Assembly: GCA_024277095.1 (NCBI GenBank)
Contig: JAJRVX010000401.1
Span: 26-64,025, forward strand
Direction: 5' to 3'
Length of the DNA: 64,000 nt
From: Chloroflexota bacterium
GTDB taxonomy: Bacteria; Chloroflexota; Anaerolineae; DUEN01
Position numbers and translations under genes: made by a program. Within the stretch, counting starts at the first letter, position 1, and each line of letters opens with the position of its first letter. The notes under the pieces are model-generated. The model worked only from the letters and a program-made list of their open reading frames with translations. It was not told the DNA's origin and searched no databases. Positions 52,551 to 57,475 of the stretch are shown here, piece after piece.

Positions 52551-52624
52551 TGGGCTCGCCGGGACTTGAACCTGGAACCCTCTGCTTATGAGGCGGACGC
52601 CTTCACCCATTAAGCTACGAGCCC
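52551..52624 (-). tRNA. tRNA with CAU anticodon (Met or Ile2), element-encoded
   Basis: GGGCTCGTAGCTTAATGGGTGAAGGCGTCCGCCTCATAAGCAGAGGGTTCCAGGTTCAAGTCCCGGCGAGCCCA. The 7-bp acceptor is perfect and the T-loop is TTCAAGT. There is one C.A mismatch in the anticodon stem and one A.C mismatch in the T stem. No CCA is encoded. Confidence 0.75.
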
Positions 52625-52631
52625 TGTGACC

Positions 52632-52931
52632 TTACTGTGCAAAACCAGCCAGCTTTTGTAATCGAAGCGCTTCCAGTACCTGCTCCTCGAGCTCGGAAAG
52701 TTCCTGAGCGACCTTCTCAAACTTCTCCTTGTCACAGTTCATTACGGAGACGGTGACAATTTTCACTCTGTCCCTCCGGAAGGAGACCCCATCATACCGG
52801 TGCCGATAGTTCAGTTCTTGGATCATCCGATCGCTGGGGTCAAATTCGAGTTCAAAGCGAGCCAGCATCCAAGTCCTCGCGTTTGTCCCACTATCTCTAT
52901 TCAACGGATCATAGAGATATGCCTCCCGCAT
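52632..52931 (-). CDS. Hypothetical protein (ORFan)
   Basis: ATG 52931 lies behind AAGGAGGAAG. Last gene of the minus-strand operon, ending 8 nt before the tRNA. Confidence 0.45.
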   Translation of the reverse strand: MREAYLYDPLNRDSGTNARTWMLARFELEFDPSDRMIQELNYRHRYDGVSFRRDRVKIVTVSVMNCDKEKFEKVAQELSELEEQVLEALRLQKLAGFAQ

Positions 52932-53265
52932 GGCTTCCTCCTTGCACTTCGCTTCCATCTGCACCGAGGCTTACCCTTTCAAAGGGCATCACCAGCGTCA
53001 GGACGACCAGATCCTCTTCGATGGGCCAGTACACATATGCCGTATTGCCTGGGGCTATCGTGCAGGGCACCTCAACGCTTTGAGGCTCAACACCAAGTAT
53101 GAGCGTCACGTCGTCTATGTGACGAGGTTTGATGTAGGCGTGGATCGCATATGGCTCGCCAGAGATCTGGGTCGTCCTATTGATCGAGAACGTGGTGAAG
53201 CCATGATCCGCAAGCAGCTTCATGACTTCCGCGATTCTATCTATGAGTTCATTCAGCTCTCGCAT
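52909..53265 (-). CDS. Hypothetical protein (ORFan)
   Basis: ATG 53265 lies behind AAGGAGAGG (MRELNELIDRIAEV...). The track ORF extends to 53532. Confidence 0.45.
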   Translation of the reverse strand: MRELNELIDRIAEVMKLLADHGFTTFSINRTTQISGEPYAIHAYIKPRHIDDVTLILGVEPQSVEVPCTIAPGNTAYVYWPIEEDLVVLTLVMPFERVSLGADGSEVQGGSHAGGISL

Positions 53266-53646
53266 ATGATCCTCTCCTTTGCTATCTATGTTCACTTGTA
53301 GCCAGCCGAAGAAGGCCTGGAATGCTCCGCGGGAAGTGAGCCAACTCCAAAATGGCCCTTTTCCCGCATCGCGAGTTTGTAGGAATGCGGGTAGTTTCCT
53401 GCAGACGAAGAGGCTTTCGGGACTGAGGCGCAGCACGCCTTGTATTGGTTTGATACTGCAGTTGCCTGATTTGAGGTGATGAAGGGGGATGCCTTGGAAG
53501 ACTACCGGTAGGCCTCCTTCAAGAGGCTCCATCTTTTCTTGTGGCCCCTGGGAGGAAAGATGCTTCGGGTTGTGAGAGAAGCTGTGTAACCCACATCGTG
53601 GTTATACAGCGCCTGATTTGTGAATGGAGGCATCGAGGGAGGTGTT

Positions 53647-54570: not shown

Positions 54571-54841
54571 GCTTTCCCTCCACGGCTATGATCATGCGGT
54601 AAGGTAGACTGGCTATCGCCGTGAGGACGCTTACGAGCTCCTTGGACACCTCATCGTTCACGTCGTAGTAGAAGCGTGAGCCTTCGTGTGGTGTCCAGCT
54701 CTCGCCGTACCGCGGGACTTTGCCTGGATAGCGCACTTTGACGATGAAGTAGGGGTAATACGCCCCATAGCGAGTGCGCACGGAGAACTTGTAGGGGCAC
54801 ACCTTCTCGATCGCATTGCGTACTTCCCATGCATATCGCAT
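54527..54841 (-). CDS. Hypothetical protein (Tyr/Arg-rich)
   Basis: ATG 54841 lies behind GAGGTGG. MRYAWEVRNAIEKVCPYKFSVRTRYGAYYPYFIVKVRYPG... Confidence 0.4.
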   Translation of the reverse strand: MRYAWEVRNAIEKVCPYKFSVRTRYGAYYPYFIVKVRYPGKVPRYGESWTPHEGSRFYYDVNDEVSKELVSVLTAIASLPYRMIIAVEGKHDRQADRRHRYLSA

Positions 54842-54852
54842 CGCCCACCTCA

Positions 54853-55176
54853 CTAGAACCAGCTCGCCAGCTTCGGGCCGCATCCCTCTAGCTCGGCCTG
54901 CACCGCCGTCATCGCGAGCTTGAAGTCCGCCATGTATCCCGTATGGTTGTGCCGGTTGCGGATGGCGCGCTCCAGAAAGTTCCTACCAACCTCACGCACC
55001 TTATCGTCGTTGAAGGACTGTGCCATCCACATGTACATCTCGCAGTGAAACGGCAGGTCGAGCTTGTATGCCAGGAGTGCGTTGGCTGCCGCGAGCGGAG
55101 TGAAGTACCCCAGCGACTCGCAGATCATATGGGCAACGATGCGCGGGTATCGTCTCAGTACCTCATCTCTGGTCAT
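54853..55176 (-). CDS. Hypothetical protein (ORFan)
   Basis: ATG 55176 lies behind GAGGAGG (MTRDEVLRRYPRIV...). It is immediately downstream of the polymerase-like gene. Confidence 0.45.
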   Translation of the reverse strand: MTRDEVLRRYPRIVAHMICESLGYFTPLAAANALLAYKLDLPFHCEMYMWMAQSFNDDKVREVGRNFLERAIRNRHNHTGYMADFKLAMTAVQAELEGCGPKLASWF

Positions 55177-55243
55177 GGTCGCCTCCTCGTCCAGAAAAAT
55201 AAAGGCGACGCACGTGTACGACGACACGTGCATCGCCTCACAC

Positions 55244-57475
55244 TTACCCCATTACCCGCAGCGCATCAATCCACCCACGCTTGCGGGCAATCTCTCGGAG
55301 TATGTGCAACCGGTCTTCCGGTAGGCTCTTGACGGTCTTCTTCGCCACAGCCCACCGGATGATCCCACCCTCTTTCGTCCGGAGCCCGATCTGATTGACT
55401 GCAACGGGCTCGACGGACATGAGTAGGTCGATCACCTCATCCGGGAAGCCCACAAAGACGGCGCTGTTGCCGGACGACATGGACAGTCGCCATATCGCCC
55501 GGAAGAAGGCGTCTCTGTTCTCGGTGAGCCCCGGTAGCTCCTTGCCGTCCACAATGCGGCTCTCACCCTGGCACCACGCCCGCCAGGACTCGCAGATGTT
55601 GGCGATCTCGGTGTCTCTCTCATCCTGATCCTTGATCTCCCTGATCGCCCGTGCAATCGGGCCGGAGTACAGGGCACGCACCATGTGGCGAGCCGTCCTC
55701 ACGACGGCCTCGTCGGGCTCCGGAACGAGATCGACGAGATACGCCGTGTTGATGGCGACATCCTCGGCGGGCCGAAAGTGGCTGGCCACGTGATCCCATA
55801 GCTGCGAGATGGTGTCCTCTCCGCCGGTGATCGGCGCCTTCTTACTCCAGCACCACCGCTGTTTATGCACCTGGAGCCATACGGGATTATCGCCGATCTC
55901 CCGACGGATCTCCGCAAGGCGCTCTGGATCATACGACGTATCATACTTGATCATGTCTACGGCGCCTTGCAGCATGTCGGCCAGTTCGGGGATGAGGTCA
56001 TCTCGGCCGTTGGCGTGCGCCGCTGTAATCGCATTTGCGATGCGACCGAGAGCACCACCGCCCTCGATGGCACGCTCGGTCACGAGGCGGCGGTTCTCAA
56101 GCTCCATCGTGGACTCACGGCGCGGCTTCTCCTTGGGGACTTCATAGCCGTTGAAGGAGCGCGCCTCCTCCGTCATTGTGGGAAATGGGGCCGTTTCCCA
56201 CAAGACGAAATTATCGCCATCGAAATCTCCGGCGAAGTGAGCAGCCGTCTCGTGGCTCATCGCCACGGTGCCGGGGATCTGGTTCTTGTGCGTGTTGACG
56301 ACGACCTGGATGTCCCACGGCCCTCTTATCGGATAGCGGGCCATGAACAGCTCGCCTTCGGGGAGCTCTGTGGTGGACACGACCATGTAGTCCAGGTCAT
56401 CGTCGGGGATCGCCATGAGGCCGACACCGCTCAGGTTTGCATGGGTGGCAACATGCCACCAGGCGTTGCGGGTGAGCTCCCGAATGCGTTGCTGGATCGG
56501 CTTGGTCTTGATCACGAGCTCGTTCCTGTCGGCCAGTAGCAATTCCTCGGTGTACGAGTGCGCGCCCACCTCATCGTCGTAGATGAAGTCGAGCAGCGCC
56601 TTGCGGTCGTTGTGTAGCCGCAAGACCTTCTCCAACTCCATCTCCAGGTGGACGCCGAGATCGGCGAACAACGCTGAGGGCGAGAACCACTGAAGGATCT
56701 GGTAGCCAACAGCCATCTTCAGTGGTCGCGCCCATTCACGGATGCCGAACACAACCTCGCCTTCCCATACTCCAAGGGGCAGTTTCTTGCCCTTGAAGGA
56801 TGACCGTGGGAGGACAAGATCATACTCCGTCTCCGCCGGCCTCACGGTGCCCTTGGCGATCCACTGGTCGGGGGCGACCAGCCTAAACTGGGCGACCGTG
56901 ATGTCCTTGGGCGGAAATCGCCGACGGGCCAGACGACGCCACGCTTCACGGGTCTCCTCGGGCAAGGACTCGTCCTCGGCGGCACGGCGGATCATCTCGG
57001 AGCGTGCCATACTGCGTTCCACGTCGGGATGGTGGATATCCCAGAGCAGGTCGGGAGCTGCAAGGCCGTGGCAATCGCCGGTGCCCCACTCGCCGTCCTC
57101 CACCACCAGGATCTTCACCTGGCGGCGGATTGGCTTTGTGCGGAGCGTAGTGAGCAACATACCGACATATGGCATGTGCTCAGCGCACGTGCCGTAGCGA
57201 GACAGGAGATCGAGCTTGCTGTAGACGATGCGGCCCTTCTTCACGGAGGAGCCAAAGAAGTCGATCTGGAAACCGGTGACGCCTAACGGTATGATGGGCT
57301 CCTCCGGATTTACCTGGACGATCGCCACGTCCTTTGGGGAGTACAGCTCCTCAAAGATCGTGTTGCGATAGTCCACATGCGACAGCGTACGCCCACGGTC
57401 GTCGAGTACGCGAATGCGGATCATTGTGTGACGCCTCCTGGGAAAGAGATAGGGGTGAGGGCGAGATGCCCCCAC
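55244..57475 (-). CDS. Two-barrel (double-psi beta-barrel) RNA polymerase homologue, YonO / eukaryotic-type RdRP-like
   Basis: Ordered motifs: VVEDGEWGTGDCHG, AQFRLVAPDQWIAKGTV, ARYPIRGPWDIQVV and AGDFDGDNFVLWE (DFDGD codons at 56213..56227). The probable true start is ATG 57424 behind AGGAGG. Confidence 0.6.
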   Translation of the reverse strand: MGASRPHPYLFPRRRHTMIRIRVLDDRGRTLSHVDYRNTIFEELYSPKDVAIVQVNPEEPIIPLGVTGFQIDFFGSSVKKGRIVYSKLDLLSRYGTCAEHMPYVGMLLTTLRTKPIRRQVKILVVEDGEWGTGDCHGLAAPDLLWDIHHPDVERSMARSEMIRRAAEDESLPEETREAWRRLARRRFPPKDITVAQFRLVAPDQWIAKGTVRPAETEYDLVLPRSSFKGKKLPLGVWEGEVVFGIREWARPLKMAVGYQILQWFSPSALFADLGVHLEMELEKVLRLHNDRKALLDFIYDDEVGAHSYTEELLLADRNELVIKTKPIQQRIRELTRNAWWHVATHANLSGVGLMAIPDDDLDYMVVSTTELPEGELFMARYPIRGPWDIQVVVNTHKNQIPGTVAMSHETAAHFAGDFDGDNFVLWETAPFPTMTEEARSFNGYEVPKEKPRRESTMELENRRLVTERAIEGGGALGRIANAITAAHANGRDDLIPELADMLQGAVDMIKYDTSYDPERLAEIRREIGDNPVWLQVHKQRWCWSKKAPITGGEDTISQLWDHVASHFRPAEDVAINTAYLVDLVPEPDEAVVRTARHMVRALYSGPIARAIREIKDQDERDTEIANICESWRAWCQGESRIVDGKELPGLTENRDAFFRAIWRLSMSSGNSAVFVGFPDEVIDLLMSVEPVAVNQIGLRTKEGGIIRWAVAKKTVKSLPEDRLHILREIARKRGWIDALRVMG

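Follow-up and report, generated by a model that had tools for sequence, protein, structure and literature searches.

A two-barrel RNA polymerase gene and its array of small genes as the probable early region of a phage-derived island in an Anaerolineae chromosome

Introduction

What links a gene for a polymerase-like protein to the seven small genes and the tRNA gene that follow it on one strand of an Anaerolineae chromosome? A preliminary description of the 64-kb stretch of DNA analysed here (the window) had read them as a single polymerase-led operon of ORFans, whose small products could be specific partners of the polymerase or parts of a defence cassette. The features that it listed, namely the polymerase-like gene, the seven small ORFs with their junctions and two larger gaps, and a tRNA(CAU), are all present on the minus strand (Table 1). 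We ask whether they form one unit, what the polymerase is and where the locus comes from.

Results

Table 1. Features of the polymerase locus and its surroundings, in window coordinates
Feature	Position	Strand	Remarks
tRNA(CAU)	52551..52624	minus	ARAGORN and Rfam tRNA, 59.7 bits
ORF7	52632..52931	minus	99 aa
ORF6	52909..53265	minus	118 aa
Conserved non-coding leader	53266..53399	minus	5′ of ORF6; hairpin CCCGCAT...ATGCGGG; ~85% identical to L052
ORF5	53647..53976	minus	109 aa
ORF4	54083..54373	minus	96 aa; CxxC ... Cx4H
ORF3	54370..54570	minus	66 aa
ORF2	54527..54841	minus	104 aa; Tyr/Arg-rich
ORF1	54853..55176	minus	107 aa
Terminator-like hairpin	55202..55239	minus	Terminator scan; 16-bp stem, then TATTTTT; between polymerase stop and ORF1 start
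Polymerase ORF	55244..57424	minus	726 aa from likely start ATG 57424 (open frame 55244-57475); same as deposited gene call
Polymerase leader	57422..57494	minus	Motif TGACGACG-N-AGGGGTGGGG, GGGG/CCCC hairpin, then ribosome-binding site
PEP-CTERM surface protein gene	57603..58382	plus	Pfam PEP-CTERM; divergent from polymerase
161-aa gene	58707..59192	minus	Function unknown; weak homologue in viral contig L042, E = 1e-5
65-aa gene	59221..59418	minus	Same leader motif at 59416-59481
SSB gene	59783..60172	minus	Pfam SSB, E = 9e-37; upstream of polymerase; leader motif at 60170-60236
146-aa gene	60306..60746	minus	Weaker leader-motif copy at 60750-60797, nhmmer E = 1.5e-3

By motif, Pfam match and predicted fold, the large gene is a homologue of RNA polymerases, as its earlier label had implied; more precisely, it encodes a single-subunit two-barrel (DPBB) RNA polymerase, belonging to the phage gp64/YonO/QDE-1-like clade. 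The sequence GDFDGD occupies residues 399-404, and D400, D402 and D404 of the DFDGD motif are invariant among 18 homologues. The only Pfam family to match is RdRP (PF05183; residues 368-537, E = 4e-5), with a score slightly below the gathering cut-off (22.9 versus 23.8 bits), and several relatives of the polymerase carry precomputed hits to the same family. A sequence search of PDB chains gave no match. The best Foldseek matches to the AF2 model (pLDDT 85.6) are 8f5m (P74 gp62) and 8f72 (phage gp64 RNAP), with E of about 1e-10 and a probability of 1.0, followed by Pol IV and bacterial beta′; viral predicted structures match as well, including those of P23-45 and crAss-like phages. Compared with its counterparts in two sister loci (L001 and L052), to which it is 80-84% identical, the polymerase has a dN/dS of 0.08-0.09.

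One of the closest known systems is that of the Thermus phages P23-45 (gp64) and P74-26 (gp62) (8f72, 8f5m; PMC10770324), the best structural match, with which the polymerase shares a single-chain two-barrel architecture, a DxDGD metal site and a similar size (~600 aa for gp64, 726 aa here). We also count as likenesses that the gp64 gene lies among early phage genes and that gp64 recognises GC-rich promoters, a GC-rich motif being found in the window 5′ of the polymerase, the SSB gene and two other genes. However, identity to gp64 is only ~12% and the TM-score 0.4-0.5, the host phylum differs, neither a companion virion RNAP nor a tape-measure fusion is seen in the window, and the locus is chromosomal with no structural module visible. 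YonO of the B. subtilis prophage SPbeta (PMC5467207), likened to the polymerase by description, is a prophage-encoded RNAP of one subunit, homologous to the multisubunit enzymes, and transcribes a set of genes of its own phage; unlike here, that set consists of late structural and lysis genes, none of which is visible in the window. Both gp64 and YonO are DNA-dependent phage transcriptases by experiment (PMC10770324, PMC5467207). Eukaryotic-type RdRPs (PF05183; QDE-1) fall into the same two-barrel clade (PMC10770324), but the context here is bacterial and phage-like, RNA-templated activity is not indicated and the Pfam score stays under its cut-off.

Judged from their sequences, the seven small ORFs are real genes, beyond chance, because five are kept in order under purifying selection and because frame scores and codon-position GC agree in all seven. 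The order polymerase-ORF1-ORF4-ORF5-ORF6-ORF7 is common to the window and both sister loci, and alignment with these loci yields a dN/dS of 0.16-0.27 for the five ORFs. By codon usage the annotated frame ranks top of six in 7/7 cases, the GC minimum falls at the second codon position in each, and all boundaries are identical to the deposited gene calls. The GGAGG-type ribosome-binding sites described before almost every ORF are found 4-9 nt 5′ of the start in all seven.

The individual ORFs differ in their relatives. ORF1 (dN/dS 0.17) is predicted to form an all-helical domain (model pLDDT 83.6) that matches no PDB fold. The label of ORFan fails for it: ORF1 shares 47-60% identity with the C-terminal part (one domain) of proteins P0034-P0038, and its family occurs in 11 IMG/VR viral contigs (GC 31-65%), where no polymerase homologue lies within 8-10 kb of the family's genes. 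One family member (L040) adjoins Prok_Ub, E2, JAB, ThiF and DarA_C-like genes. For ORF2, the Tyr/Arg-rich protein of the preliminary description, and for ORF3, searches of limited sensitivity found no relatives; the searches for ORF5, ORF6 and ORF7 were similarly limited. ORF2 and ORF3 form a window-only cassette, both being absent from the two sister loci, where a clean indel runs from the end of ORF1 to the beginning of ORF4.

ORF4, the CxxC protein noted earlier (dN/dS 0.16; kept in both sister loci), is probably a small zinc-binding protein, as suggested by its CxxC ... Cx4H pattern. A weak homologue (33% identity, Cys and His residues kept) is encoded directly 3′ of the polymerase at another locus, L006, whose polymerase is 33% identical to the window's. 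When 1.84 billion representatives were searched exhaustively, ORF4 matched only the sister-locus protein P0039; at E<=0.001 this library-wide search did not return the L006 protein. ORF5 is 90% identical to its L001 counterpart and 82% to that of L052 (dN/dS 0.17-0.21), with a dS of 0.3-0.5, far below that of the polymerase, and its sequence suggests a mostly helical protein. ORF6 is 84% identical to its L052 counterpart (dN/dS 0.27) and ORF7 74% to its own, which is partial there (dN/dS 0.18). Along the locus, dS is 0.3-0.7 for ORF5-7 versus 1.1-1.7 for the polymerase, ORF1 and ORF4, and GC3 drops from 0.80 to 0.59 along the small-ORF array.

Within the array, ORF1 and ORF2 are separated by an 11-nt spacer, ORF2 and ORF3 overlap by 44 nt, ORF3 and ORF4 are joined by an ATGA overlap, and ORF6 and ORF7 overlap by 23 nt. 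The tRNA gene begins 7 nt past the ORF7 stop on the same strand; its 1:72 pair, read from the sequence, is G:C, and the tRNA is assigned to the elongator Met or Ile2 type, not the initiator. A single operon led by the polymerase is contradicted by a terminator-like hairpin after the polymerase gene in three loci, by two intergenic gaps (106 nt between ORF4 and ORF5, 381 nt between ORF5 and ORF6), and by the ~130 nt of conserved non-coding sequence within the latter. The polymerase-ORF1 junction, which had been taken as tight, spans 67 nt and contains the hairpin; the two genes are therefore not coupled. The folding energy of this hairpin is -31.8 kcal/mol (z = -4.0). Hairpins with a T-run stand at the same site in L001 and L052, though with a stem sequence other than that of the window, and in six loci of the phage clade strong hairpins likewise lie 3′ of the polymerase. 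We infer that the polymerase gene is transcribed as a unit by itself, ending in a strong intrinsic terminator.

Upstream, the polymerase leader is ~86% identical to that of L001, compared to 77% for the coding sequence, and its motif occurs four times in the window, before the polymerase and three other minus-strand genes, the SSB gene among them. The leader of ORF6 is likewise conserved, while the remainder of the ORF5-ORF6 gap is indel-ridden against L052. Consequently, a long in-frame extension of ORF6 is read as non-coding.

The locus has a GC content of 0.47-0.60, whereas the window's first 46 kb, an ordinary chromosomal stretch that encodes ValRS, GGT and ABC transporters, has 0.59-0.68 (mostly 0.61-0.68); we counted this drop in favour of a foreign origin. 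No integrase, att repeats, capsid, terminase or portal was found anywhere in the 64-kb window, which is a point against an intact prophage. Genes for surface proteins, on the opposite strand, lie in between the phage-like ones. Of these surface-protein genes, the PEP-CTERM gene, which probably lies outside the phage-derived set, adjoins the polymerase in L001 and L052 too, and a neighbour kept in 3/3 loci counts against a phage island. So does the possibility that the SSB gene and the tRNA are ordinary host genes, and the polymerase dN/dS of 0.08, at synonymous divergence that is saturated, would be compatible with a gene long retained by the host as well. The L042 homologue of the 161-aa gene lies 2.3 kb from that contig's ORF1-family gene.

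Relatives of the polymerase stand in phage surroundings. Loci L002-L005 hold a portal gene, SSB, RNase H, an HTH protein, a tRNA and many small ORFs, and in L002 the tRNA lies within the gene array downstream of the polymerase. An SSB gene is next to or near the polymerase homologue in L002-L004 and in the IMG/VR viral contigs L014 and L015, in the first of these contigs directly upstream. The window resembles the early arrays of L002-L005 in its polymerase, strong hairpin, same-strand small ORFs (40-190 aa there), tRNA within the array and nearby SSB. It differs from them in that they are clear phage genomes with a portal gene, whereas the window is without structural genes, and in that their small ORFs are unrelated to those of the window. 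Co-occurrence of the small ORFs with the polymerase is confined to near kin: five accompany it in its two closest relatives, but none has a homologue at ~30 non-redundant distant loci, save the weak ORF4-like gene of L006, which is also the sole exception among polymerase relatives at <=34% identity. The L014 polymerase is as close to the window's as is that of L006, yet it lacks small-ORF homologues. A distant clade of 1062-aa polymerases occurs in Anaerolineae contigs of 333-525 kb.

Discussion

The explanation that we favour, and consider probable, is that the locus represents the early genes of a phage-derived island in an Anaerolineae chromosome: possibly a cryptic prophage fragment, or a prophage arm cut by the contig end. 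Its layout is that expected of early regions in phages rather than that of a new defence machine.

An unlikely alternative is that the array serves the polymerase, with at least one small protein, ORF4 being the first candidate, acting as an accessory or promoter-specificity subunit. It would account for the gene order kept under purifying selection in three loci and for the ORF4-like gene, CxxC and Cx4H intact, that directly follows a polymerase in L006; moreover, the need of YonO for promoter-recognition factors is an open question (PMC5467207). However, the three syntenic loci are closely related, so that their shared order may be simple inheritance, and the L006 match is weak and was missed library-wide. 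The proposal that the small proteins are polymerase-specific partners is further weakened by their absence from distant loci, L014 included, by the spread of the ORF1 family without a polymerase, by the dispensability of ORF2 and ORF3 in the sister loci and by the terminator that sits between polymerase and array; gp64, for its part, is a monomer that shows activity by itself on scaffolds (PMC10770324).

It is quite unlikely that Anaerolineae have kept an old phage polymerase and its neighbours for a cellular job, such as transcribing a gene set or protecting against superinfection. The shared PEP-CTERM neighbourhood, the low polymerase dN/dS at saturated synonymous divergence, the absence of structural and integration genes nearby and the 1062-aa clade in long Anaerolineae contigs are all consistent with such domestication, and reports place YonO-like genes not only in prophages but also in main genomes (PMC5467207). 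But this case draws on three short or terminal contigs, each of which shows at most one flank, and purifying selection is equally expected on the genes of an active temperate phage; the mosaic composition and dS, the ORF2-ORF3 indel and the viral-contig family of ORF1 argue against it. Very improbable is a cassette for defence or counter-defence with an RNA polymerase, perhaps RNA-dependent, at its core, an idea of the preliminary description. The sole Pfam match is to an RdRP family, small genes without assigned function could in principle encode effectors or anti-defence proteins, and the L040 member of the ORF1 family has the ubiquitin-type neighbours listed above. Nevertheless, PADLOC matched none of its models to ten proteins, NCBIfam gave no match, the closest structures in the PDB belong to DNA-dependent transcriptases of phages (PMC10770324), the polymerase's relatives lie in early or replication regions of phage genomes, and the occurrence of the small ORFs does not follow that of the polymerase.

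Within a phage-derived island, the polymerase would, by analogy, be a DNA-dependent transcriptase of the element's own genes, and the seven small genes and the tRNA would be accessory cargo in at least three blocks (ORF1-4; ORF5; ORF6-7 with the tRNA). On this reading the small genes are fast-evolving and exchangeable as cassettes, as early-region genes of phages usually are, for example those for host take-over, regulation or anti-defence, and do not encode dedicated polymerase subunits. The small Cys/His protein ORF4 is the sole candidate partner of the polymerase. Their expression could depend on read-through of the terminator or start from the conserved non-coding stretches. The flap domain is needed by cellular polymerases for their response to hairpins, and relatives of this polymerase lack it; read-through, perhaps by the element's own polymerase, is therefore conceivable.

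A phage-type two-barrel RNA polymerase

Among the relatives of cellular RNA polymerases, the single-subunit two-barrel enzymes are rare and branch deeply, and to our knowledge few of them have been studied: YonO, P23-45 gp64 and gp96, crAss gp66 and QDE-1. The locus adds an uncharacterised family to this small set. Its 726-aa polymerase carries the DxDGD metal-binding signature of the catalytic barrel, present as GDFDGD at residues 399-404, and D400, D402, G403 and D404 are invariant in an alignment of 18 family members. When its AlphaFold model (pLDDT 85.6, pTM 0.77) was compared by Foldseek, the best matches were the Thermus phage enzymes 8f5m (P74 gp62) and 8f72 (gp64), the solved structures closest to the model (E 2.5e-10 to 1.3e-9, probability 1.0, TM 0.39-0.49), followed by plant Pol IV and bacterial beta' (E ~1e-3). 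Matching predicted viral structures in BFVD include P23-45 and crAss-like phage proteins. The alignment and the model thus establish the catalytic motif and the predicted fold, and bear out the preliminary description of the gene as an RNA polymerase homologue. Because of the DFDGD motif and the Foldseek matches to phage RNA polymerases, we assign the polymerase to the phage single-subunit two-barrel clade (gp64/YonO/gp66/QDE-1).

Sequence searches recovered a small family of 26 proteins, the window's own included, among 5.8 billion searched; most of them come from MAGs of Anaerolineae or from uncultured phages. The polymerase scored 22.9 bits against Pfam PF05183 (RdRP; gathering cut-off 23.8, E=4e-5) with no other Pfam match, and precomputed PF05183 matches were present in 14 of the 26 listed proteins, again including the window's own. 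It was also matched by phrog_34895 (E=7e-7). A PDB sequence search returned chance matches only, and tblastn against the INPHARED phages found no match.

By analogy with two characterised enzymes, the polymerase would transcribe the element's own genes from DNA. The first, gp64, is a monomeric, DNA-dependent, non-virion RNA polymerase encoded by a pre-early gene; its promoters are GC-rich and drive early genes and some of the middle ones (PMC10770324). The second, YonO, is a comparable prophage enzyme in Bacillus (PMC5467207).

We fetched and compared ~30 non-redundant loci with polymerase homologues. Those at ~30% identity (L002-L005) are phage contigs that also encode a portal protein, SSB, RNase H, an HTH regulator and a tRNA, together with extended series of small ORFs of unassigned function. 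L014 and L015 are IMG/VR viral contigs, and the gene immediately 5' of the L014 polymerase is SSB. More distant homologues of ~1060 aa (1062 aa) form a clade in Anaerolineae contigs of 333-525 kb (L013, L024, L026, L031 and related loci). The conserved genes upstream of them include one for a DUF6884 protein, next to the polymerase, and others for 500- and 900-aa proteins without a Pfam match; this clade may be a chromosomal, non-phage version of the polymerase.

The small genes are real and under selection

The layout reported in the preliminary description, a polymerase followed by seven small ORFs (ORF1-ORF7) and a tRNA, is present in the sequence, and the ORFs match the deposited gene calls. 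A GGAGG-type ribosome-binding site precedes every one of the seven starts. Tight or overlapping same-strand junctions were confirmed at ORF1/2 (11-nt spacer), ORF2/3 (44-nt overlap), ORF3/4 (ATGA) and ORF6/7 (23-nt overlap), as were the larger gaps of 106 nt (ORF4-ORF5) and 381 nt (ORF5-ORF6). A 207-aa form of ORF6 (start 53532) was rejected, since the extension is not conserved, is broken by indels in L052 and is not the deposited call.

Coordinates of the features of the locus, with dN/dS between the window and its sister loci
Feature	Position	Strand	dN/dS	Remark
Compositionally mixed island	46000-64000
Low-GC genes	48800-52463			44-49% GC
tRNA, anticodon CAU	52551-52624	-		7 nt past ORF7 stop
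ORF7	52632-52931	-	0.18	boundaries as in deposited gene call
ORF6	52909-53265	-	0.27	boundaries as in deposited gene call
Stretch of ORF5-ORF6 gap next to ORF6	53266-53399	-		conserved non-coding
ORF5	53647-53976	-	0.17-0.21	boundaries as in deposited gene call
ORF4	54083-54373	-	0.16	boundaries as in deposited gene call
ORF3	54370-54570	-		boundaries as in deposited gene call
ORF2	54527-54841	-		boundaries as in deposited gene call
ORF1	54853-55176	-	0.17	boundaries as in deposited gene call
Terminator-like hairpin	55239-55202	-		16-bp stem, then TATTTTT
Polymerase, long ORF	55244-57475	-	0.08-0.09	likely start ATG 57424, giving the 726 aa on record
Leader motif copy, polymerase	57422-57494	-
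PEP-CTERM gene	57603-58382			opposite strand to polymerase in sister loci
Leader motif copy, 65-aa gene (59221-59418)	59416-59481	-
Strong terminator	59652-59622			just after tRNA-like gene
85-nt tRNA-like gene	59656-59740	-		just after SSB gene
Leader motif copy, SSB gene (59783-60172)	60170-60236	-
Leader motif copy, 146-aa gene (60306-60746)	60750-60797	-		weaker
Low-GC genes	61696-63873			44-49% GC
Direct repeat, 188 nt	62503-62690 and 63172-63359			74% identity

Two sister loci allowed the coding signal to be measured. L001 is a 3.8-kb contig of the Anaerolineae MAG AUK314 with a polymerase 84% identical to the window's; L052, a 5.1-kb metagenome contig reached via the ORF4 relative P0039, has one 80% identical. 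In both, the polymerase is preceded by the PEP-CTERM gene on the opposite strand and followed by ORF1, ORF4 and ORF5 in turn, and L052 runs on into ORF6 and part of ORF7. With the dN/dS values in the table, these small genes are real and under selection. ORF2 and ORF3 are absent from both sister loci, a clean ~475-nt indel that runs exactly from the ORF1 stop to the ORF4 start, and their loss or gain is cassette turnover. Because they are missing there, the evidence for ORF2 and ORF3 as genes is intrinsic: ribosome-binding sites, a GC content lowest at the second codon position, and an annotated frame that is the best of six by codon usage.

Divergence is uneven along the locus. Against the sister loci, dS is 1.1-1.7 for the polymerase, ORF1 and ORF4 and 0.3-0.7 for ORF5-7, and GC3 drops from 0.80 in ORF1 to 0.59 in ORF6 and ORF7, the signature of a mosaic history as judged from composition and substitution. 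Gene by gene, the comparison with L001 gives a dS of 0.41 (PEP-CTERM gene), 1.43 (polymerase) and 0.30 (ORF5); in that with L052, the highest value, 1.97, belongs to the PEP-CTERM gene. The uneven dS across the PEP-CTERM gene, the polymerase (55244-57424) and ORF5-ORF7 (52632-53976) points to recombination within the locus.

A terminator-like hairpin separates the polymerase from the small genes

A 16-bp hairpin followed by a T-run, with a folding energy of -31.8 kcal/mol (z = -4), sits 3' of the polymerase stop and ahead of the ribosome-binding site of ORF1. L001 and L052 have a 16-bp hairpin with a T-run at the same place, and its stem differs at most positions, so that conservation is of the structure and not of the sequence. 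Strong hairpins also lie directly 3' of the polymerase gene in six phage-clade loci (L002, L015, L019, L020, L022 and L025), four of them with classic T-runs. Taken with the sister loci, these hairpins make the end of a transcription unit right after the polymerase look like a habit of the family.

A single polymerase-led operon, as the preliminary description proposed, is contradicted by this hairpin, which splits the polymerase from ORF1 in three loci. It is also broken by the 106- and 381-nt gaps, the second of which includes ~130 nt next to ORF6 that are conserved with L052 and non-coding; the other 250 nt are not conserved. The conserved stretch carries the inverted repeat CCCGCAT...ATGCGGG and could function as a promoter or operator, or as a small RNA. 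The proposed translational coupling holds for the ORF1/2, ORF2/3, ORF3/4 and ORF6/7 junctions and fails for polymerase/ORF1, where the terminator-like hairpin lies in between.

Based on this arrangement, we infer that the polymerase gene is a separate transcription unit and that ORF1-7 would be accessory cargo of an early type, with expression coming from read-through or from leaders of their own. The hairpin may have no effect on the element's polymerase, since enzymes of its type are without the flap domain on which cellular polymerases depend for termination at hairpins (Discussion of PMC5467207). If the polymerase reads through the terminator, a simple temporal switch would result.

A motif is repeated in four gene leaders

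The leader of the polymerase consists of TGACGACG-N-AGGGGTGGGG, then a GGGG/CCCC hairpin and a ribosome-binding site. We found the same layout, GACGACG-N2-3-AGGNGTGGGG, a short GGGG/CCCC hairpin, ~20 nt, CCAGGAGG and ATG, ahead of four consecutive minus-strand genes, the polymerase and three others, at an equal distance to the start codon. The motif is kept 5' of the polymerase in L001 and L052; none was found upstream of ORF1-7. It may serve the element as a promoter or as an operator, and by its sequence it could also be an RNA element. This GC-rich motif and the family-recurrent terminator right after the polymerase gene are testable sequence features of the family; apart from them, the region is ordinary-looking phage-derived cargo.

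The small genes lack family-wide linkage to the polymerase

A role of the small proteins as an accessory set of the polymerase, also suggested in the preliminary description, would call for their co-occurrence with its homologues, and this is confined to the sister loci L001 and L052. The ~30 other polymerase loci contained no homologues of the seven small ORFs except a weak ORF4-like gene in L006, so that family-wide linkage is lacking. Pfam, PHROGs, NCBIfam and PADLOC returned nothing meaningful for the seven small ORFs, and viral-contig scans with ORF2, ORF3, ORF5, ORF6 and ORF7 gave no match. A concatenated ORF1+4+5 query found proteins of 186-208 aa only, and an ORF2+3+6+7 query found none; the latter result says little, because neither query recovered the ~100-aa self proteins known in the same collection.

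ORF1 is no ORFan, since its family includes members in 11 IMG/VR viral contigs (GC 31 to 65%). The protein is 47-60% identical to the C-terminal domain of proteins of 186-208 aa. In those viral contigs no polymerase homologue lies within 8-10 kb of the ORF1-family gene; therefore the family is a widespread phage accessory gene that moves independently of the polymerase, which argues further against an accessory set. The domain is predicted to consist of six helices, and no match indicating a function came from Pfam, from a profile search of the PDB or from Foldseek. No informative fused domain was found by Pfam in the longer proteins from viral contigs, and tblastn of the family member P0034 against INPHARED phages and PLSDB plasmids had no match. 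The longer members P0034-P0038 have Cys-rich N-terminal extensions that resemble zinc ribbons. In L040 (4661-10120), the ORF1-family gene adjoins DarA_C-like, DUF4314, Prok_Ub, Prok-E2, Prok-JAB and ThiF genes, which may be part of a mobile element.

ORF4 is the sole candidate for a polymerase partner among the small proteins. In L006, the gene that comes straight after the polymerase encodes 95 aa with 33% identity to ORF4, its CxxC and Cx4H residues included. An exhaustive search of 1.84 billion representatives found one real ORF4 relative, the sister-locus protein, and an ORF4 profile run against all fetched loci (L052 not among them) found nothing besides L001 and L006. The exhaustive search also matched three long proteins, two of them low-complexity or repetitive and the third without an aligned stretch. 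L006 itself is a 4.9-kb contig binned as a Methanomethylicaceae archaeon, with a polymerase 33% identical to the window's, an RNase H gene, the ORF4-like gene and a gene with an HTH-like product; it resembles phage DNA, and its archaeal placement may be a binning artefact.

The alternative of a defence cassette found no backing in PADLOC-DB, where the polymerase, the seven ORFs and two neighbours had 0 matches at E<=0.1. We also considered a self-contained transcription module of phage origin, kept by Anaerolineae chromosomes or in a satellite-like element, in which the polymerase would use the GACGACG...AGGNGTGGGG leader as promoter, ORF4 would be its specificity factor, and the terminator would be a temporal switch that stops the host polymerase only and turns on ORF1-7 and the tRNA; we regard this scheme as improbable. 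We read the locus as a two-barrel RNA polymerase of phage type with the usual array of early genes, a known kind of system, and neither as an operon centred on the polymerase nor as a defence system.

The locus lies in a mixed, probably phage-derived island

Over its first 46 kb the window is ordinary chromosome carrying ValRS, gamma-glutamyltranspeptidase, ABC transporter and histidine kinase genes; the GC content there is 0.59-0.68 (mostly 0.61-0.68) and falls to 0.47-0.60 from ~46 kb. The remainder is a compositionally mixed island larger than the polymerase array, in which opposite-strand surface-protein genes are interleaved with phage-like genes. An intact prophage was not recognised, as no integrase, att repeats, structural or packaging genes lie in the window; this absence applies to the window, which makes up all but ~0.8 kb of the ~64.8-kb contig. 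Neither a duplicate of the tRNA 3' end nor convincing flanking direct repeats were found as prophage borders. The tRNA(CAU) is unlikely as an attachment site, the island being on its 5' side and not at its 3' end. The locus is thus at most a phage-derived island, perhaps a cryptic fragment or else a single prophage arm.

The low-GC genes of the island encode a weakly DUF3644-like protein with a possible zinc ribbon, membrane proteins, a Pro/Thr-rich surface protein and an SH3 plus DUF4352 protein. The 85-nt tRNA-like gene, between the SSB gene and a strong terminator, is normal in its acceptor, D and T arms and carries G3:U70 and A73, which are alanine identity elements that tmRNA has too. A long stem with a 13-nt loop replaces the anticodon arm. 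ARAGORN found no anticodon, Rfam matched two tmRNA-model ends only (27.6 bits, below cut-off), and a viral-contig scan had no match. Finally, the 188-nt direct repeat lies inside the 725-aa SH3/DUF4352 gene, and its copies may be two SH3 domains of that protein.
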